64,000 bases of DNA, from positions 23,689 through 87,688 of the forward strand of contig JBEKYR010000031.1 in NCBI GenBank assembly GCA_049510745.1. The letters are read 5' to 3'. Positions 2,492-12,118 of this stretch are shown here, piece by piece. The stretch is from Verrucomicrobiota bacterium. GTDB lineage: Bacteria; Verrucomicrobiota; Verrucomicrobiia; Limisphaerales; Palsa-1400. Below the pieces are notes generated by a model. That model worked only from the letters and a program-made list of their open reading frames with translations. It searched no databases and was not told the origin of the DNA. The translations under genes were made by a program, and so were the position numbers. Positions within the stretch are counted from its first letter, which is position 1, and every line of letters begins with the position of its first letter.

Positions 2492-2558
2492 TTGACAAGC
2501 CTCGGCGGAAAGCACTATTAGAAGCGTGCCGCACCTCGCGCGGGCACAAGCTGTAGTA
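2492..2558 (+). promoter_or_regulatory. sigma70-like promoter with two degenerate NrdR-box-like sites
   Basis: Perfect TTGACA at 2492. CACTATTAGAAGCG (2513) and CACAAGCTGTAGTA (2545) start 32 bp apart and resemble the NrdR box CACwAyATrTAGTG. They lie directly upstream of an nrdA-like gene. Confidence 0.5.
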
Positions 2559-2588
2559 GCCTGCCTCGCCCTGATGCGGGCGAGGCCG

Positions 2589-4838
2589 ATGAGTGATTTG
2601 CCGCAAGAACAATTACACATTCAAGGGCTTGATCCCTTGGAAGGGAGAACTTTTCGCGTCCGAAAACGCGATGGCCGGACCGAGGAATTCAACGAGGCGC
2701 GAATTCTTCTCGCTCTGGAATGCGCCTTCAAGGCCCACCACGGCCTCAGCCCTGAGAAACATTTGCCGGATGCGGTGCAAGCCGCGGTCAAGAAATGCGC
2801 CGACCATGTGGTCGAACGCGTCTTGAGCCGCGCGGTCAAGGGCGAGGAGTTGGAAGTCGAGCGCATCCAGGACGCGGCCGAGGACCAACTGATGACCGAG
2901 GGCCACCTGGAGGTGGCGCGCCGCTACATCCTCTACCGGGAAGAACGCCGCCGGACGCGGGTCGAGCGCGAATTGCGCGCCGTGTTCCAGGAATCAAAGC
3001 CGCCGCCGCCTGTCCCCAAAACCCCGACCGCCGCGCCGCCGGAAGAGCGTCCGCGAGCGGGGGGCCTTTCGGCGCAAGAATGGCTGCGCAGCATTTACGG
3101 CCAAGCCCTGCCCAAGCCACGGCCCGGTGAAACACTCCAAGAGGTTCATCGCCGCCATTTCGACTGCTGCCTCAACGAAGGAGAGTATCTGCGCCTGGTG
3201 GACGCCGAGTTGCTGGAGTTTGACTCCGCACGCCTCGCCCGCGGCCTGCGCCTGGAACGGGACCAAACCTTCACGGCGGCGGGATTGGAGGCGCTGCACG
3301 ACCTTTACCTGCCCCGCGAAAATGGCCGCCGCCTCCAAACACCGCAGCATTTCTGGATGAAGATCGCCATGGGGCTGGCCTTGAACGAAGGCGCGGCGCG
3401 GGAAACGCGCGCCCTGGAGTTTTACGAAGTTCTCTCCACCTTCCGTTTCGTTCCCTCGGATTTGATCTTGCGCCACGCCGGCTCGCCCCATCCGCAACTG
3501 AGCGCCTGCCACGGGGCCGCCTCCGCCTCTGATCTCGAACACGTCACGCTCCAACCCGGCGGCCCGGCCTGCTCCTGGCTGGAGCCTTGGCACCGTGATG
3601 TTTTGGCTTTCCTGGCGCGGCCCCAACCCGGCGGCGCTCCGTCGGACCCGCAATTGAACAAAGGGCTGTGGGTGCCGGACCTGTTCATGAAACGGCTCCG
3701 CCAGCAGGGCTCCTGGACGATCTTCGATCCCGGCGAGGCCGACGGCCTGCGCCGCTGCCAGGGCGCGGAATTTGAGGCGCGGTACCTCGAATACGAGCAA
3801 CAAGCCGCGCGGGGCGGCCTGCGCTTTTCCCGGCGGATAAACGCAGCGGACTTGTGGCGCCAGGTCCTGGTGTCGCTCCTGCAAACCGGCCAGCCCTGGC
3901 TCGGCTTCAAGGACGCTGTCAATACTCGTTCCACGCGGGACCACCGCGGCCCGGTTTGCGGCGCGGGCGTGGATGGCGACGTTTTGCCCAAGACCTTCCC
4001 CTACGAAGGGACCGCCTGCCCGTTGGGAGCGATCAACCTCGCCGCCCATCTGACGGATCGGGGCGTTGGTCTCGATGTGACGCAATTGCGGGCCACCGTC
4101 ACCGCGGCGGTTCGCATGCTCGATAACGCCGTCGATTTGAGCGCCTACCCGGCGGAGCCGCTTCGCGCCGCCAGCCGGGAACAGCGGCCCATCGGCCTGG
4201 GTGTGGCGGGCTTTGCCGATGCCCTCGACCGCCTCCAACTCCAGCCGGCCAGCGCGGCCGCCGCCGACTTTGCCGACTGGAGCATGGAATTGGTCTCTTA
4301 CTTTGCCATCCTGGCCTCGGCGGAACTGGCCGCCGAACGCGGCCCCTGTCCCGGCTATGCCGCCTCCAAGTGGAGCCGCGGCCTCCTGCCCCTCGACACC
4401 CTGGCGCTGCTGTCAAGCAGACGCGGCCTGCCCGTGGATGTCAACGCCGCCGCCGCCCAGGATTGGGAACCCGTCCGCGCCATGATTCGGCGGCATGGGA
4501 TGCGCCACTGCGCCACCACCGCCGTCGCCTCCTGCCACGGCCCCGCCCGTGTCGCCGGCCTGGCTCCCTTCCCGGACGCCGGAGCGACCGACCCTTTCTG
4601 GCTGATCGAGTGCGCGGCGCGGCGTCAGAAATGGATCGACCTGGGCCACACCCTCGACCTGCCCGCGCCGGAACGGGACCTGGCGAAAATCTCGCGCCTC
4701 TACACGCAGGCCTGGGAAAAAGGGCTGAAAACCATCCATCAGTTGCTTCCCGCCGCGCAACTTCAGGAACATCCGGGCGTGGCCGGGGTCCCGGCGGCGA
4801 TCCAGCCGCCGCCGGAAATGGCCGCCGCCCCGGTTTGA
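2589..4838 (+). CDS. Ribonucleotide reductase alpha-subunit (NrdA) paralogue with ATP cone, predicted catalytically inactive
   Basis: ATP cone (VRKRDGRTEEF...VERIQD...YILYR) and NrdA segments TPQHFWMKIAMGLA, PQLSAC, WVPDLFMKR, RPIGLG and RRQKWID. The SNLCxE loop, the YY pair and the C-terminal CxxC are absent. Confidence 0.85.
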   Translation: MSDLPQEQLHIQGLDPLEGRTFRVRKRDGRTEEFNEARILLALECAFKAHHGLSPEKHLPDAVQAAVKKCADHVVERVLSRAVKGEELEVERIQDAAEDQLMTEGHLEVARRYILYREERRRTRVERELRAVFQESKPPPPVPKTPTAAPPEERPRAGGLSAQEWLRSIYGQALPKPRPGETLQEVHRRHFDCCLNEGEYLRLVDAELLEFDSARLARGLRLERDQTFTAAGLEALHDLYLPRENGRRLQTPQHFWMKIAMGLALNEGAARETRALEFYEVLSTFRFVPSDLILRHAGSPHPQLSACHGAASASDLEHVTLQPGGPACSWLEPWHRDVLAFLARPQPGGAPSDPQLNKGLWVPDLFMKRLRQQGSWTIFDPGEADGLRRCQGAEFEARYLEYEQQAARGGLRFSRRINAADLWRQVLVSLLQTGQPWLGFKDAVNTRSTRDHRGPVCGAGVDGDVLPKTFPYEGTACPLGAINLAAHLTDRGVGLDVTQLRATVTAAVRMLDNAVDLSAYPAEPLRAASREQRPIGLGVAGFADALDRLQLQPASAAAADFADWSMELVSYFAILASAELAAERGPCPGYAASKWSRGLLPLDTLALLSSRRGLPVDVNAAAAQDWEPVRAMIRRHGMRHCATTAVASCHGPARVAGLAPFPDAGATDPFWLIECAARRQKWIDLGHTLDLPAPERDLAKISRLYTQAWEKGLKTIHQLLPAAQLQEHPGVAGVPAAIQPPPEMAAAPV

Positions 4839-4903
4839 TGTTAGGTTCCTGAAACGGTTACGAAAGCTCTTCGTTGACCGGGCCCGGCCGAGGCTCCAGC
4901 GGG

Positions 4904-7274
4904 TCAGCGCACCTGGAGGCGGTAGAACTGGGCGCCCAGGGCTGGATTGGGGTTGACAAAACAGTTCGTCCCGCCCTCAAGGGTGCATGTGCCGATGACC
5001 TGCCAGTTCAACAAATCAGCGGAAGACTCGATGTTCACCGGCAGGTTGGTAAGACCGGTGATCCCGAAACCGAATTGGCCGGCGTTCAGACTGGGTGGCT
5101 GTAACATCGGCGCTGCTGAACTGGCCGGAAATCCTTTCCGGATGGTGTTGTTGAAAGTGTCCGTCACATAGAGGTTGCCCGCGCTGTCCACCGCCACGCC
5201 GTAAGGGTTATTAAACCCCGCGTTGCTCCCCGTCCCGTCCGCGCTGGCACTCCAGCCCGGCCATCCCGCCAGCGTCGTCACCACCCAATTCGTTCCGACC
5301 GGCGTCACTTCCCGGATCGTGGAGTTCCAGGAGTCCGTCACATAGACGTTGCCCGCCAAGTCCACCGTCAAGTAAGACGGGTTGGAAAACTGCGCGGCGC
5401 TGTTCGTCCCGTCCGCGCTGCCAGAAGTTCCCGCCAGTCCGGCCAGAGTGGTCACCTCCCAACTCGCGCCGACCGGCGTCACTTTCCGGATCGTGTTGTT
5501 GCCCGAGTCCGCCACATAGACGTTGCCCGCGCTGTCCAGCGCCACGTCGCCAGGACCATTAAACCGCGCGGCGCTCCCCGTGCCGTCATTCGTACCAGTA
5601 CTGCCCGCCAGTCCGGCCAGGGTCGTCACCACGCCCGCCGACGTCACTTTCCGGATCGTCGAGTTGTTATAATCTGCCACATAGACGTTGCCATTGGTGT
5701 CCACCGCCACGCCGGTAGGATAACTAAACCGCGCGTTGCTCCCCGTCCCGTTCTGGCTGCCCGTAACACCAGCCAGTCCGGCCAGGGTCGTCACCACGCC
5801 CGCCGACGTCACTTTCCGGATCGTCGAGTTGTTACAATCTGCCACATAGACGTTGCCCGCGTTGTCCACCGCCACGCCGGCAGGCTCATTAAACAGTGAC
5901 ACCCGCCAGTCCGGCCAAGGTCGTCACCATGCCCGCCGGCGTCACTTTCCGGAGGGTCGAGTTTAGCTCCTCCGCCACATAAAGGTTGCCATTGGTGTCC
6001 ACCGCCACACCGTCCGGCAAGTTAAACCGCGCGGCGCTCCCCGGCCCGTCCGCGCTGCCAGGACAGCCCGCCAGTCCCGCTAGCGTCGTCACCACGCCCG
6101 CCGACGTCACTTCCCGGATCGTGTTGTTGATCGTGTCCGCCACATAGACGGTGCCATTGGTGTCCACCGCCACGCCTTGAGGCCAGTAAAACTGCGCCGC
6201 GCTCCCCGTGCCGTCATTCGTACCAGTACTGCCCGCCAGTCCGGCCAGGGTCGTCACCACGCCCGCCGGCGTCACTTTCCGGATCGTCGAGTTGGCATAA
6301 TCTGCCACATAGACGTTGCTCGCGTTGTCCACCGCCACGCTACTAGGATAATCAAACCGGGCGGCGCTCCCAGTACCGTTCTGGCTGCCAGTAACACCCG
6401 CCAGGCCGGCCAGGGTCGTCACCACCCAATTCATTCCGTCGGGCGTCATTTTCCGGATCGTGCTGTTCTGGTGGTCCGCCACATAGAGGTTGCCCGCGCT
6501 GTCCACCGCCATGCCGGCAGGATAATGAAACCGCGCGGCGCTCCCGGTCCCGTCCGCGCTGCCGGCACTGCCCGCCAGCCCGGCCAGGGTCGTCACCACG
6601 CCCGCCGGCGTCACTTCCCGGATTGTGTCGTTGTCCCTGTCCGCCACATAGAGGTTGCCCGCGCTGTCCACCGCCACACCCCGAGGATAATTAAACCGCG
6701 CGGCGCTCCCCGTGCCGTCATTCGTGCCAGAACTGCCCGCCAGTCCGGCCAGGGTCGTCACCACGCCCGCCGGCGTCACTTTCCGGATCGTGTTGTTGCC
6801 GCCGTCCGTCACATAGACGTTGCCATTGGCGTCCACCGCCACGCGGCCAGGATCATTAAACCGCGCGTTGCTCCCCGTCCCATCCGCGCTGCCGGCAACG
6901 CCCGCCAGTCCGGCCAGGGTCGTCACCACCCAATTCGTTCCGACTGGCCTCACTTTCCGGATCGTGTTGTTCTGGTCGTCCCCCACATAGAGGTTGCCCG
7001 CGCTGTCCACCGCCACCCCCATAGGCTGCGCGAACCGCGCGGCGCTGTTCGTCCCGTCCGCGCTGCCAGAGCCGCTGTCCCCGGCCAGGGTGGTGAAGGT
7101 GTAGGGAGTGGCGTAATTGGCCTGGCCAAAGGCGGCCAGGGGCAGGACGGCCAGCCAGAGCAGGGCGCCCGGCAAATTCCCGGCCAGCCGCCGGAAAAGA
7201 CTATCGGGTTTCGTCATGTATCCAGTGCCGGACCAGCGTCCGGCGCGATTTGAAGGGACAACGTTCTTTTTCAT
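4904..7274 (-). pseudogene. Secreted NHL-repeat beta-propeller protein split by a frameshifting deletion at about 5894
   Basis: ORFs 5889-7274 (signal peptide plus NHL repeats FNxPxGVAVDxxGNxYVAD) and 4904-5893 (NHL repeats plus ...QFYRLQVR) are colinear. About 32 nt of one repeat unit is missing at the junction. Could be an assembly error. Confidence 0.8.
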
Positions 7275-7355
7275 TGTTTGTGATCTTTTGTTTTGAATTG
7301 GTCCTCCGACCAGGACGCGCTTCGGGCCTCCTTGGCCCCGCTGTGGGGTCTGCCA

Positions 7356-7475
7356 AAAGAGGACTTCTTCGCGGTCATCAGCCGGTTTCATAGGCGAAGG
7401 CGTTGGTGCCTTCACTCATACATGCGCATTCGGGCGGGAAAAAGTATGGAGGCATTTCAGAAATCTTTTTCGCCA
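7356..7475. repeat. Diverged ~120-bp copy of the kinase promoter and 5' end (other copy 10856-10975)
   Basis: Both sites share aaagaggacttcttc...gccggtttcatagg...ttggtgccttcactcatacatgcg...aaaagtatgga...ttcgcca and both encode MKPADDREEVLF. Confidence 0.9.
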
Positions 7476-7525
7476 GTCCACTTCCTGCAAATCAGCGAGG
7501 GGCGTCCGGCCTCACTGAAATCAGG

Positions 7526-10500
7526 TCACCGGGTCCCTGCCTTTTCGGCATCTGCGATCTCCGCCCATGACGGAGCGCGCCAGAAATGAACCACCCCATC
7601 GCGCCCGCCGGTCGCCAGGATTTTGTCATCGGGCGAGAATTGGACGAAATACTGAGGAACATCGGTTTTAAAAGTGAGGATTTCACGGTCGGTCTCCAGG
7701 TCCCAAAGTTTTACCGCCGGATCGTCACTGCCGCTGGCCAAGGTCCGCCCATCGCTGGAAAAGGCCAGTTGTATGACACCTGTCTTGTGTCCGGTTAGAG
7801 TTGCCACTTCCTTTTTCGCGTTAAGGTCGCAAACTTCGATGCTGCCGTCCCAACTCCCCGCGGCGAACAGGCCACGGCTGGAGAAAGCCAGGGCGGCAAC
7901 GGGATCCCTGAAACCAGCCACGGTCCAAATCACCTGCCGCTTCTGCAAATCCCACAGTTTGGCCGTCAGGTCATAATGCCCCGAGGCGAGCAGCTTGCTG
8001 TCCGGCGAGAACAACAGACACCGGGCCGTTGTTACCGGAAGCTCGAACAGAGCTTTACCGGTGAGAAGGTCATTCACGACAATTCGGCCAGGGTGCGAGG
8101 TCGCAACCAGTTTGCCATCGGGCGAAAGGGCGGAATCAAAGATTCTGCTTACAGGAGTGGCGACCGTCGTGGACGCGAGCAGCGATTGCGTTGAAAGGTC
8201 CCACTGTCGAAGCAGCGTCAATGATTCGTCGCGTGTGATTAGACTTTTGCCATCAGCCGAAAAGACCACCGGGTAACCCTCCATGTCCCGGCCAGCCTGG
8301 ACTTGTCCAGTGGATGTCTCCCAAAGCCTGACGCCGCCGCCAACAGTGGTGGCCGCCAGGCGTTTTCCGTCTGGGGAAAAAACCGGCAATCCAACGTGGT
8401 CGAATCGATCCATGGCGATATTGGTAATGGTATTTTGTTCTCTTGAGGCCGAAGGATTCCAAAGCATGACTGTATCGTCCAAACTGCCGCTGGCCAGCGA
8501 CCTGCCATCGGGTGAAAACGTCACAGCCCAAACCTCTTTCCCATGTCCACGCAGACTTCCCAGCATCTGGCAGCTTGGGATCTCCCACAGAGTAATATCA
8601 TGGGTCTTGTTCCCGGTTGCCAGAAGCCGGCCGTCCGGAGAAAAGGCGACGCTAAGAATTGCAGCGATGGCTTTTGATAGAATCGCCGGCCTTTGCTTGG
8701 TCAACTCCCACAGCCCCGTAACCCCGGAACCGGCGCCCCAGGCCAGGAAGCGTCCATCCGGCGAAAACGCCAAAGAAAGGACGTTTTCGCTGGAATAGGA
8801 ATTGAATGGCTTTAAGTCTTCGAGACGCCACAGTTTGATCAATCCGCCCCCGTTGGCGGTCGCGAGGATTTTGCCGTCGGGAGAAAACGCAACCCGGCCC
8901 CCCGGCTCGGGCAAGACGGACATCATCCGGCCGGCAGCGTAGTTCCACAGTTGCACGGGACCGTCTGTTTCACCATAGATGTTACCACCCGTCGCGATGG
9001 CCAGAAGACCGCCTGAAATGGCCAGGTAGGCTGCGTGGTTTGTCGTAGTGATGGTGAGAACGATCTGATGCGTCCGGGCATCCCATAATCGAACCAAGCC
9101 GTCCGCACCCCCGCTGGCAAATAACTTTCCATCGGGCGAGAAAGCCACGGACATAACCTCGGCGGAATGGCCGGCGCAATTGGCGATGAGTTCGCCGGTT
9201 ATCGCATTCCAAAGTCTCACCGTGTGATCCGAACTGCCGGAGGCCAGCATCGTTCCGTCCGGTGAATAGGCGACGCAATTGACGTAATTCGAGTGGCCAA
9301 CCAACGTCTTAAGCTGCTCGCCCCGGCTCTTGCCCCACAGGTAACGCCATTCGAAGCCGCGCAGGTCTTCCTGCCCGGGTTCAGGTTGATGTTGCGCGAG
9401 CATCCGGCGAGCGAGGCCAAAGTTTCCATCCTCCAAGGCGAGGTTCGCCGCGATCAGGTCCGAGGCGTAGGCGTTTCGCCGGGTGGCAGCTTCCCGCGCG
9501 TCGGCAAGCTGGCGCAAGCGGCTTTGCTCCCGCTCGGCCTCCAGGGTCTGTTGATGGGCTTTCTTCTCCTGAACGAACATCCAGGTAGAAACGCCCAAGC
9601 CGAGGATGAGCGCCGCAGTCACGGCACTGGCAGCAATGAAGGCCAGCTTGTTGCGCCGCACCATTTTCTGAAACAGATACATCTTGCCCGGCGGCCGGGC
9701 CAGCACAGGCTCGTTGCCGATGTGCCGCTCAAGGTCCGCAGCCAACCCGCTGGCCGTCTCGTAACGCCGTGTTCGATCCTTCTCCAGACACTTCATCACG
9801 ATCCAATCCAAGTCCCCGCGCACCAGATTCAGCAGCTTGGGCGCATCGGTCTGACGGCGCTTGGCCGTGGTCGTCAACTCGCCTTCGCCCAGGGTGGTCA
9901 GGCGGGTGCTCGGCCGTCGCGGTTCCTCTTCGCGGATGGTCCGGCGCATCTCTTCAATCCCCTTGGCCAGCAATTCCTTTGCGTCAAACGGCGTCTTGCC
10001 TGTCAACAACTCGTAGAGCAACACCCCAAGGCTGTAGATGTCGCTGCGGGTGTCGATGTCCAGCCCGGCCATCTCGGCTTGTTCCGGACTCATGTACGCC
10101 GGCGTGCCGATCATTTGCTCCAGCGCCGTGTAAATGGTTTTCTCGGTCAACCGCTGCTCCGTCGCCTTGGCCACCCCAAAATCAATCACTTTCGGCACCG
10201 CGACGCCATCGTGTATGGCCACCAGAATGTTCGACGGTTTGATATCCCGATGAATCACTCCCTTCTGATGCGCGTGCTGGACGGCATGGCAAATCTGGAC
10301 GAACAAATCCAACCGCTCCCCGGTGGAGAGGTTGTTCTGGTCGCAGTAATCGGTGATTTTAATCCCCTGCACCAGTTCCATCACAAAGAACGGACGGCCT
10401 TTGTCCGTGGCGCCCGCGTCGAACACCTTGGCGATATTGGGATGGTCCATCAGCGCCAGGGCCTGCCGTTCGGCCTCGAAACGAGCCAACACTTGTTTGC

Positions 10501-10891
10501 TGTCCATCCCCGGCCGGATGACCTTGAGGGCCACCCGCCGTTTGACCGGCTCCTCCTGCTCGGCCAGATAGACGACACCGCAGCCGCCTTCGCCAATTTG
10601 CTGGAGGAGACAATAGCGGCCAATCTTGTCGCCCGGCTTCTCGGCGAGAGGGTCCGAAGGGGTGGCGGTTTGCCCCGGCAATGGAATGGCCAGTTCTTTC
10701 AAGAAGTCGCCCGCCGGCGGTTCGAGGAATGGGTCGGGACTCTCATGGGCCTTAAGAAGCGCTGCGAGCCTGGCGCGAAGCGCCGCGTTCTCCGCGCAGG
10801 CCCGGTCAAGGTAGTTTTCGCGCTCCGGGCCACTCGTCCGTTGCAGCGCCTCGCGAAAGAGGACTTCTTCCCTGTCGTCAGCCGGTTTCAT
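7526..10891 (-). CDS. Hanks-type Ser/Thr protein kinase with TM helix and C-terminal WD40 repeats
   Basis: IGEGGCGVVY, VALK, HRDIKPSN, DFG and GTPAYMSPEQ; hydrophobic helix; many GH...FSPDG...W repeats. Alternative GTG start at 10915. Confidence 0.95.
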   Translation of the reverse strand: MKPADDREEVLFREALQRTSGPERENYLDRACAENAALRARLAALLKAHESPDPFLEPPAGDFLKELAIPLPGQTATPSDPLAEKPGDKIGRYCLLQQIGEGGCGVVYLAEQEEPVKRRVALKVIRPGMDSKQVLARFEAERQALALMDHPNIAKVFDAGATDKGRPFFVMELVQGIKITDYCDQNNLSTGERLDLFVQICHAVQHAHQKGVIHRDIKPSNILVAIHDGVAVPKVIDFGVAKATEQRLTEKTIYTALEQMIGTPAYMSPEQAEMAGLDIDTRSDIYSLGVLLYELLTGKTPFDAKELLAKGIEEMRRTIREEEPRRPSTRLTTLGEGELTTTAKRRQTDAPKLLNLVRGDLDWIVMKCLEKDRTRRYETASGLAADLERHIGNEPVLARPPGKMYLFQKMVRRNKLAFIAASAVTAALILGLGVSTWMFVQEKKAHQQTLEAEREQSRLRQLADAREAATRRNAYASDLIAANLALEDGNFGLARRMLAQHQPEPGQEDLRGFEWRYLWGKSRGEQLKTLVGHSNYVNCVAYSPDGTMLASGSSDHTVRLWNAITGELIANCAGHSAEVMSVAFSPDGKLFASGGADGLVRLWDARTHQIVLTITTTNHAAYLAISGGLLAIATGGNIYGETDGPVQLWNYAAGRMMSVLPEPGGRVAFSPDGKILATANGGGLIKLWRLEDLKPFNSYSSENVLSLAFSPDGRFLAWGAGSGVTGLWELTKQRPAILSKAIAAILSVAFSPDGRLLATGNKTHDITLWEIPSCQMLGSLRGHGKEVWAVTFSPDGRSLASGSLDDTVMLWNPSASREQNTITNIAMDRFDHVGLPVFSPDGKRLAATTVGGGVRLWETSTGQVQAGRDMEGYPVVFSADGKSLITRDESLTLLRQWDLSTQSLLASTTVATPVSRIFDSALSPDGKLVATSHPGRIVVNDLLTGKALFELPVTTARCLLFSPDSKLLASGHYDLTAKLWDLQKRQVIWTVAGFRDPVAALAFSSRGLFAAGSWDGSIEVCDLNAKKEVATLTGHKTGVIQLAFSSDGRTLASGSDDPAVKLWDLETDREILTFKTDVPQYFVQFSPDDKILATGGRDGVVHFWRAPSWAEIADAEKAGTR

Positions 10892-10975
10892 AGGCCAAGG
10901 TGTTGGTGCCTTCACTCATACATGCGTCATTTAGGCGGAAAAAGTATGGATGATTTTCACGCATTCCTTTCGCCA
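10856..10975. repeat. Kinase promoter and 5' end, likely source copy of the 7356-7475 repeat; probable ECF-dependent promoter on the minus strand
   Basis: Minus strand reads TCCATAC...GACGCATGTA between the ECF gene and the kinase start; the TCCATAC and GCATGTA blocks are conserved in the second copy. Confidence 0.75.
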
Positions 10976-11019
10976 CTGGCCCCGCTTCAACCAGCGCCGG
11001 GGCGGGAGGCTAACCGACT

Positions 11020-11583
11020 TCAACCACCCGCGCGCATCGCCACCGCCAGCCAGGCCCGGGCGTAGGCCCACCATTCCTTCGCCGTCGGTACGGCGATGCC
11101 CAGCACCGAGGCCGCCTCTTCGAACGTCATCCCCGCGAAGTAGCGCAGCTTCACCAATTCAGCCTGACGCGGATGGATGGCGGCAAACTGCTCCAGGACC
11201 TCATCGACCGCCAGCAGTCTCTCGTCGTCGTCCGCTACGAGAGGAATCTCTGCCTCATCCAGTTCGACGCGGTCCGCTCCACCACCGCGCTTCAGGGCCG
11301 TCCGCCGCCGCGCGCGCTCGACCAGAATCCGGCGCATCGCTTCGGCCGCCGCGGCGAAGAAATGGGCGCGATTCTTCCACGCCGGCTGGGCATCAGCGCC
11401 CAGCCGCAACCAGGCCTCGTGAACGAGCGCGGTGGGTTGCAGGGTTTGGCCGGGCGCCTCCTGGGCCATCTTGTGGGCGGCGAGTCTGCGCAACTCTTCA
11501 TAGACCAGCGGAAACAGTTCCCCGGCAGGCGGCGGTTCGCCTCCCTCCATGTGCTCCTCACTTTTGGGAACGTCAATCCTCAT
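11020..11583 (-). CDS. ECF sigma factor, TIGR02999-like (kinase-associated)
   Basis: LVYEELRRLA, TLQPTALVHEAWLRL, HFFAAAAEAMRRILVERAR, KRGGG and LRYFAGMT; directly upstream of a Ser/Thr kinase. Confidence 0.93.
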   Translation of the reverse strand: MRIDVPKSEEHMEGGEPPPAGELFPLVYEELRRLAAHKMAQEAPGQTLQPTALVHEAWLRLGADAQPAWKNRAHFFAAAAEAMRRILVERARRRTALKRGGGADRVELDEAEIPLVADDDERLLAVDEVLEQFAAIHPRQAELVKLRYFAGMTFEEAASVLGIAVPTAKEWWAYARAWLAVAMRAGG

Positions 11584-11795
11584 GGCATCGGTGCTGGCAT
11601 TCCTTTTCCAAGAGCTTGAACTGCGGGCGAGGCGTTGGCTGAACTGGGTCAGCGTCTCGTGTCCGTAGCGGCAGCCTGTGTATAAGACCGCCTAAAACTT
11701 GTCAAGATATAAAGAATAATCATTTATAATTGGCAGTGCGCCTGCGCCCTCTTGGCCGCCATGCGTCCGACCGCGAAAATGTTGGCGTTTTTTTC

Positions 11796-11824: not shown

Positions 11825-11884
11825 CGTGGTAGAAAACGCACCGGAGAGCGTGCGGCCGTTCTTTTACAAATAACATGGGAATTT

Positions 11885-12061
11885 ACCCTGCCATGTTCGT
11901 GATTAAAAACACAGTCCTTGAACCGTAAATCAGTCCAAAGTGAGCCTTAACCTCGGTTGTGGCCGACAGGCCTTGACTGGACGTCGAAAGCGATCGACTC
12001 GGCTCTATCTGTTCCTAGTGACGTTCACAGGAACCGTTTTTACACGGCATTACGGCGGGGT
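11885..12061 (+). ncRNA. ssrS: 6S RNA (SsrS)
   Basis: About 177-nt rod: accctgcc pairs with ggcggggt, atgttcgtg with cacggcat, taaaaac with gttttta, and tccttgaac with gttcacagga, followed by an A-rich bulge and then poly-T. Lies upstream of ygfA and rny, the usual ssrS neighbours. Confidence 0.8.
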
Positions 12062-12118
12062 TTTTTTGCCCGCTCCTTCGCGCTTGGTGCCCTGTCCTTT
12101 TTCTGCTATTTTCTTTTC

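Follow-up and report, generated by a model that had tools for sequence, protein, structure and literature searches.

The 64,000-nucleotide window analyzed here (contig JBEKYR010000031.1 of a Verrucomicrobiota bacterium, assembly GCA_049510745.1) carries an uninterrupted open reading frame for P0001, a homologue of NrdAz-type NrdA, the alpha subunit of class I ribonucleotide reductase (RNR), that has lost its catalytic residues and that we refer to as dead NrdA. An open frame of about 750 codons with an ATP cone and an NrdA barrel had been described in the original prediction, and this was consistent with the three Pfam families that matched P0001 (ATP-cone, residues 23-121; all-alpha domain, 228-301; barrel, 325-649), none of which is a DNA-binding domain. 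The best match by both sequence (E 2e-116) and fold was the double-cone class I NrdAz of Pseudomonas aeruginosa (5im3), which was the top Foldseek hit (E 3e-48) of an AlphaFold2 model that retained the RNR fold with its 10-stranded barrel (predicted local distance difference test score, pLDDT, 86), although pLDDT was lower in the linker stretch 133-157 (< 50) and the finger-loop region 451-470 (57-63). All 23 NCBIfam models matched by P0001 scored under their cut-offs, including the class II NrdJ model TIGR02504 (134 bits, cut-off 400), whose NPCxE finger loop is absent, and a search of the ESM Atlas returned RNR clusters only. The features of the locus are collected in Table 1.

Table 1. Features of the dead nrdA locus and its surroundings (window coordinates)
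Feature	Position	Strand	Basis or remark
-35-like hexamer TTGACA	2492..2497	+	TTGAC at same place in 20/20 orthologues
NrdR-box-like site 1, overlapping -10-like TATTAG (2516-2521)	2512..2527	+	C4, A6 and G13 invariant in 20/20
NrdR-box-like site 2, 32 bp past site 1	2544..2559	+	nrdJ-trained matrix
Dead NrdAz-type RNR alpha homologue (P0001)	2589..4838	+	open frame, 749 amino acids (aa) + stop
Intact N-terminal ATP cone, predicted two-dATP type (residues 23-124)	2655..2960	+	PF03477 and conserved residues
Pro-rich linker in place of lost second cone	2985..3068	+	P0107 residues 152-205 missing
All-alpha domain (residues 228-301)	3270..3491	+	Pfam; PSDLI where intact homologues have SSTPT
C225-equivalent C307, then junction of 57-aa deletion (dimer/specificity-site helices)	3507..3563	+	alignment
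Degenerate finger loop GAGVDGDV (N437/C439/E441 to G/D/D)	3960..3983	+	alignment to 5im3
C462-equivalent C477	4017..4019	+	Cys in 63/97 family members
AVASCHG for AIAPTAT, then junction of 64-aa deletion	4521..4589	+	alignment
GLKTIHQL for GLKTTYYL, CxxC-less tail after	4722..4745	+	alignment
6S RNA (RF00013)	11882-12065	+	ahead of rarA/mgsA, 5-formyltetrahydrofolate cyclo-ligase and rny

Alignment of GAGVDGDV on SSNLCTEI of 5im3 placed G460, D462, and D464 at N437, C439, and E441, in agreement with the degenerate loop first described, and the replacements AVASCHG and GLKTIHQL and the absence of a terminal CxxC were likewise found. The cysteine of the PVC motif (C457), for which a place at the loop tip had been considered, paired with the His preceding SSN (present in 18/18 intact homologues) and not with the thiyl position. 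In Escherichia coli numbering, the Y730/Y731 pair reads HQ, and C225 corresponds to C307. Two large deletions had been predicted, and both were seen relative to the intact homologue P0107, i.e., residues 380-436 (57 aa, after the C225 equivalent) and 776-839 (64 aa, ahead of the last barrel strands), but the loss of the second cone (residues 152-205, 54 aa) had been overlooked; two pieces of the C-terminal tail are missing as well. Only the last of the four residues N437, C439, E441, and C462 that serve as a validity test for RNR sequences (10.1101/2021.01.20.427478) has an equivalent in P0001; the filtering of that RNR dataset removed 286 of its 29,401 sequences for lack of catalytic residues. 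Judged from the residues present, P0001 permits no RNR chemistry, and despite its NrdAz descent it belongs to neither the active class I nor the active class II RNRs.

Losses across the family and conservation of the cone

The homologues were sampled as the best 120 listed of 3342 matches among 8000 candidates, with source names that indicate Verrucomicrobiota; 18 were intact NrdA, six rows were set aside (one for the query itself, three that were partial or had divergent ends, and two that lacked the cone), and 97 dead members including P0001 were counted. None of the 97 retained N, C, and E together, none retained the YY pair or the terminal CxxC, and the dimer/specificity segment was missing from all, while the finger loop was wholly deleted in about 41; the second cone was kept in 21/97, as was the insert. 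The LSAC and TACPLG cysteines that had been singled out in P0001 are indeed present (C307 and C477) but are not conserved family-wide, with Cys at the two positions in 46 and 63 of the 97, respectively. Orthologues with the same losses exist, dN/dS (see below) is far under 1, and the PVC cysteine is away from the loop-tip position, so that neither refutation foreseen in the original prediction held and its pseudoenzyme reading is supported.

In the first cone, residues E91, Q94, E98, L101, G105, R111, Y113, I114, R117, and R124 were found in 97/97, and D95, E98, M102, R111, I114, R117, and R124 were retained in 96-97 of 97. The latter set matches, by spacing in helices 3-4 and not by ligand-bound superposition, the dATP and cone-cone contacts D73/D76/M80/K89/I92/R95/R102 given for Leeuwenhoekiella blandensis NrdB in the accessible part of PMC5794259. 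In addition, the hairpin has acquired fixed residues E32 (92/97 members) and E33 (88/97) at positions that are mostly V and P in intact sisters. Similarity was higher for the cone than for the body in 624/630 pairs of dead members, but in only 6/378 pairs of intact ones. These patterns indicate that selection has shifted toward the cone in the dead family, and the cone of P0001 is predicted to be of the two-dATP, self-pairing type.

Distribution, selection, and repeated origin

A single copy of the dead gene was detected in 20 of the 31 genomes of the source genome's family, spanning 9 of 10 genera (a second match in genome G008 was the cone of an NrdD). The gene nrdB was found in 0/31 family genomes and 0/18 near-complete ones by a search whose control was positive in 8/14; in the source genome (94% complete), nrdB was neither adjacent to the dead gene, as had been noted, nor elsewhere, and neither a second NrdA nor an NrdD was found. 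NrdJ-type matches, full or partial, occurred in 29/31 family genomes, with an NPCSE loop in 21/21 fetched loci, and nrdR occurred in all 31. The source genome has just two ATP cones, those of NrdR and of the dead protein, and its NrdJ on contig C13 is therefore cone-less; this is the functional RNR that the original prediction had proposed to locate. No stand-alone cone was found in any of the 31 genomes. Two loci, L051 (G008:C25) and L161 (G231:C16), encode fusions in which a class III NrdD bears a cone and N-terminus of NrdAz type, nearly like those of the local NrdA, and lie behind a cobalamin riboswitch, an apparent promoter-plus-cone swap onto NrdD; at L054 (G007:C1), pieces of a group II intron lie beside nrdJ.

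At the order level, 48 of 221 sampled genomes matched the query and 42 had nrdB. The 20 loci fetched comprised 18 NrdA with a catalytic loop, one NrdD, and one full-length dead copy (G245), in whose family the intact copy of G255 adjoins nrdB; no nrdB accompanies G245 or G247, the latter a partial and degenerate copy. A contig scan with the family profile, which does not define the range of the family, gave one dead member among 79 loci listed, most others being intact NrdA. Viral contigs had no match to six exact patterns, and the 3206 matching records of a phage collection were all below 60% identity, the top ten being annotated as ordinary nrdA.

Selection on the dead gene is purifying, as estimated from codon comparisons. 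The ratio of nonsynonymous to synonymous substitution rates (dN/dS; Nei-Gojobori, 14 pairs) was 0.13-0.45 in 12 pairs, with a highest bootstrap bound of 0.63, and two pairs were saturated, while that of NrdJ was 0.06-0.19 in 10 pairs. On the source genome's own branch, the corresponding ratio of uncorrected proportions (pN/pS) was 0.18-0.19 for the cone, in which changes were few, and 0.17-0.21 for the body. A sequencing error or a pseudogene in the source genome was ruled out by the open frame, the orthologues, and pN/pS of about 0.2.

In a tree of 82 sequences, all dead copies of the order grouped together (support 0.997), with each genus staying together, and the same clade received 94 in an IQ-TREE run restricted to alignment columns that vary between intact sequences, a value that long branches may inflate. 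The dead gene of the source family is old and vertically inherited. Length falls in a series along the tree (975 aa in G245, then about 880, 750-800, about 685, and 580 aa); the 975-aa form of G245 has lost the chemistry and kept the dimer helices, which are also kept in P0150, another early-branching dead form.

A profile search of 1.84 billion representatives recovered further dead NrdAz, of which 16 were read (one, P0281, being an intact-looking fragment). These additional dead NrdAz-like proteins include P0152, P0155, P0157, P0163, P0179, P0183, P0195, P0201, P0209, P0211, P0219, P0229, P0269, and P0293, and many of them retain the dimer/specificity helices. For seven distant ones, two of which were named Puniceicoccales, the nearest match at both ends was an intact NrdA of Opitutales/Chthoniobacterales type, and an approximately unbiased (AU) test with 26 sequences, including four of the seven, rejected a single origin (delta logL 407 and 392; p-AU 4e-86 and 1e-5, from 2000 replicates, which is below the advised number). 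The FastTree grouping of all dead forms (0.997) was ruled out by this test as long-branch attraction. Two further dead NrdAz grouped weakly (69) with chlamydial/planctomycete NrdA. By these phylogenetic criteria dead NrdAz arose at least twice, with the further dead NrdAz-like proteins tracing to at least one independent origin and probably to two or more.

Our literature search, which covered mostly open-access main texts, found no description of a dead bacterial NrdA family, and the accessible portions of PMC9531940 and PMC9669993 do not mention one. PRK06948, the class II-like "ribonucleotide reductase-like protein" (NF005401), matched P0001 weakly (74 bits, cut-off 906). A one-off degenerate class II-like RNR was seen at L205 (G259:C38:8058-9686), beside groEL, with the loop SPGGE and an internal deletion; 11/11 of its closest relatives keep NPCGE, which ruled out PRK06948 as a known dead family.

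Promoter, predicted NrdR control, and neighborhood

In 20/20 orthologues of the dead gene, TTGAC is followed after 16-18 bases by a TATTAG-like hexamer, and a palindrome lies 49-52 bases from the -35 element; a strict sigma-70 scan did not call the promoter of the dead gene because TATTAG lacks the final T. Using a box matrix trained solely on 19 nrdJ promoters, with 1570 promoter-like sites as control, site 2 scored above the 95th control percentile in 19/20 orthologues and above the 99th in 17/20, and was the top site of the upstream window in 16/20. Positions C4, A6, and G13 of site 2 are invariant and the spacing of the two sites is 31-32 across orthologues; the invariance of site 1 is partly confounded with the -10 element, and several genomes have a weak site 1 (score -9 to 17). 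The tandem arrangement fits the NrdR boxes described in the available part of PMC9110341, a pair of palindromes that overlap the promoter, lie about three helical turns from each other, and have a conserved C and G separated by nine bases. Within the source genome, the dead-gene pair ranked 19th among the top tandem positions listed, below nrdJ, smc, and gyrB, and is therefore a moderate site.

Among intact nrdA in the order, 10/18 loci have a cobalamin riboswitch upstream, as does the locus of G255, and several other intact loci carry box-like sites instead. The riboswitch was found at 0/22 dead loci scanned. This suggests that the dead gene is wired like nrdJ and not switched off by B12. The same matrix gave tandem sites before nrdJ, smc, and gyrB (G000:C10:35336 and C2:192887 for the latter two genes, which we take to be smc and gyrB from motifs in their N-termini) and, in 17 loci scanned, one site roughly 30 bases ahead of nrdR, so that a wider NrdR regulon and nrdR autoregulation are likely. 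The strongest tandem site of the genome (G000:C2:45165, L196) lies upstream of a three-gene block that includes a 497-aa protein without Pfam or PADLOC match and ends in a dCTP deaminase-like gene (PF22769).

Directly upstream of the dead gene in the window is a CHASE2 adenylate/guanylate cyclase gene (2-2380, +), with the same neighbor in G024 and G009. Dead nrdA is directly followed by 6S RNA at four of the 20 loci, which belong to three genera, and this fits a stable chromosomal site of the dead gene; in the source genome the 6S RNA lies 7 kb downstream, and because of its adjacency in the four relatives, the intervening stretch 4900-11600 (two NHL-repeat genes, a kinase-WD40 gene, and an extracytoplasmic function sigma factor) looks inserted. 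The source genome has three 6S-like copies (on C31, C6, and C5).

Possible roles of a non-catalytic alpha subunit

The dead NrdA of this family is, with high confidence, a selected, non-catalytic protein. The original prediction had proposed a decoy or modulator of the real RNR, and this calls for revision: a dominant-negative heterodimer with NrdA is excluded here because nrdB is found in 0/31 family genomes, the source genome has no second NrdA, and the dimer helices are gone in 97/97; any modulation would have to target the class II NrdJ, NrdR, or another protein. The alternative role as an ATP/dATP sensor or scaffold is suggested by conservation. We favor, at a probability of roughly 55%, a conserved RNR-alpha pseudoenzyme that would belong to the NrdR regulon and bind a partner under a dATP/ATP switch. 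The sequences show that an ancestral nrdAB pair lost nrdB, leaving a cone-less class II NrdJ as the enzyme while nrdA was retained. The orphan shed all its radical, redox, and substrate-binding residues and then, stepwise, the helices of the dimer contact and specificity site, the second cone, the insert, and the tail, with the fold, the first cone, and the NrdR-box promoter kept through the erosion. The gene would be transcribed at the same time as nrdJ once NrdR repression lifts, and the protein, monomeric without the alpha2 helices, may pair cone to cone on dATP binding like the cones of P. aeruginosa NrdA, with the barrel body as a binding surface, gated by the cone, for a partner that serves dNTP supply or the replication of the chromosome. 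Candidate partners come from regulon logic only: a replication or chromosome protein is conceivable, NrdJ, with activity control in trans, slightly less so, and feedback through NrdR improbable.

Several observations weigh against this reading. The dead gene evolves faster than the working enzyme (dN/dS 1.3-2.9 times that of NrdJ in the nine pairs with both values), and the genome pairs compared are non-independent. It is missing from 11 of the 31 family genomes, is frameshifted in G022, and has lost most of its cone in G005, P0073, and P0091; in one genus half of the barrel is deleted (580-640 aa), a loss not easily reconciled with a single invariant partner surface. The barrel residues conserved in the dead family are nearly all those that intact NrdA conserves, and comparison with intact NrdA found no family-specific new surface or binding motif in the barrel. 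Finally, among 20 loci no protein neighbor was common to more than four genomes besides shadow frames, and no partner is indicated.

Alternatively, the function may lie in the cone only, which would buffer or sense dATP/ATP while the barrel is carried along in folded form and gradually trimmed. The cone is under the strongest selection, the conservation of the barrel is that of structural residues, in-frame deletions have cut the body from 975 to 580 aa, and a few short cone-bearing proteins exist (28 matches among 311 candidates). We nevertheless regard this as unlikely, since a single stop past the cone would drop the barrel and is seen in 0/20 carriers, the short matches are of varied length with the 7/28 that were read looking like frameshifts or fragments, and the barrel is still constrained (0.23-0.27) on the branch of the cone-less G005. 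The absence of such a stop from the carriers, and a constraint on the barrel that outlasts the cone, make it probable that the body is needed.

Less likely still, the gene may be an orphan decaying slowly after the loss of nrdB, under weak selection against misfolding and with no present role, for which its patchy presence, frameshifted copy, cone losses, elevated dN/dS, and repeated origin after nrdB loss would all speak. Against such a relic, frames have stayed open across synonymous distances up to saturation with dN/dS far below 1, the promoter and boxes persist in 20/20 although silencing the promoter would be a cheap exit, and the cone is better conserved than in working enzymes, with the newly fixed E32 and E33. 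An anti-phage decoy, in which the dead alpha traps phage NrdB or an anti-RNR phage factor or senses a phage-driven rise in dATP, is about equally doubtful: there is no host NrdB to poison, the distribution is patchy and evolution faster, and the helices that bind the beta tail in E. coli appear retained in most members, but PADLOC gave no match at the dead gene, no effector domain is present, the site near 6S RNA is stable in three genera and is no defense island, control by NrdR is of the housekeeping kind, and one genus has deleted part of the beta-tail-helix region. That the RNR barrel supports a new, non-radical enzyme, or that the protein is an RNR with some other mode of activation, is very improbable in spite of the intact fold and the C462- and C439-equivalent cysteines (the latter in 30/97), given that N, C, and E never co-occur, the finger loop is often deleted, the SSTPT and APTAT motifs are lost, and the pocket has no conserved replacement residues.

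The favored reading, a dATP/ATP-switched binding protein, has partial parallels in known systems. P. aeruginosa NrdA has, as is predicted for P0001, a first, functional two-dATP cone that self-pairs by its last helices (accessible parts of PMC5794259, PMC9110341, and PMC9669993), whereas P0001 is without N-C-E, YY, or CxxC and lacks both the dimer/specificity helices and a second cone, and its genome is without a beta subunit; P0001 presumably cannot form alpha2 and hence no alpha4 ring of the P. aeruginosa kind. The R1 proteins of betaherpesviruses (UL45 of human and M45 of murine cytomegalovirus) also keep an RNR fold minus most catalytic residues for protein binding but are viral and act on host RIP1 signaling, as far as the available text of PMC5469499 describes, whereas P0001 is chromosomal, vertically inherited, cone-bearing, and apparently in the RNR regulon. 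NrdR shares an ATP-cone sensor without RNR activity and the two-nucleotide cone class (available part of PMC9110341) but binds DNA through a Zn-ribbon domain and is without a barrel; P0001, with no domain of that kind, resembles a target of NrdR. Human RNR-alpha, through ZRANB3 binding, ties a dATP-coupled oligomer to a role in DNA synthesis beside reduction (10.1101/830745, accessible part), but there an active enzyme moonlights, whereas a non-catalytic role is the only one P0001 would have, and the likeness is one of analogy.

Databases label this family as an active enzyme, and with the annotation corrected, its genomes depend on the B12-dependent NrdJ. RNR alpha is usually treated as having reduction as its sole cellular job; a dead alpha that is lineage-wide, selected, and NrdR-box-bearing, and that apparently arose more than once following the loss of nrdB, implies that NrdA has another function, separable from reduction. 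Natural deletions, which range from 975 down to 580 aa and include forms that have kept or lost the cone, together with a single allosteric site offer a handle on this non-catalytic role, and the family makes testable how cone-less class II RNRs avoid dATP overproduction. We tentatively suggest that bacteria which replace a class I RNR by a cone-less class II enzyme have repeatedly retained their old alpha as a stand-alone, dATP-gated regulator, either for the on/off control in trans that NrdJ lacks or for coupling the dATP level to replication proteins. If true, this would uncover a non-catalytic function hidden in ordinary NrdA and would provide class II RNR with a regulatory subunit.

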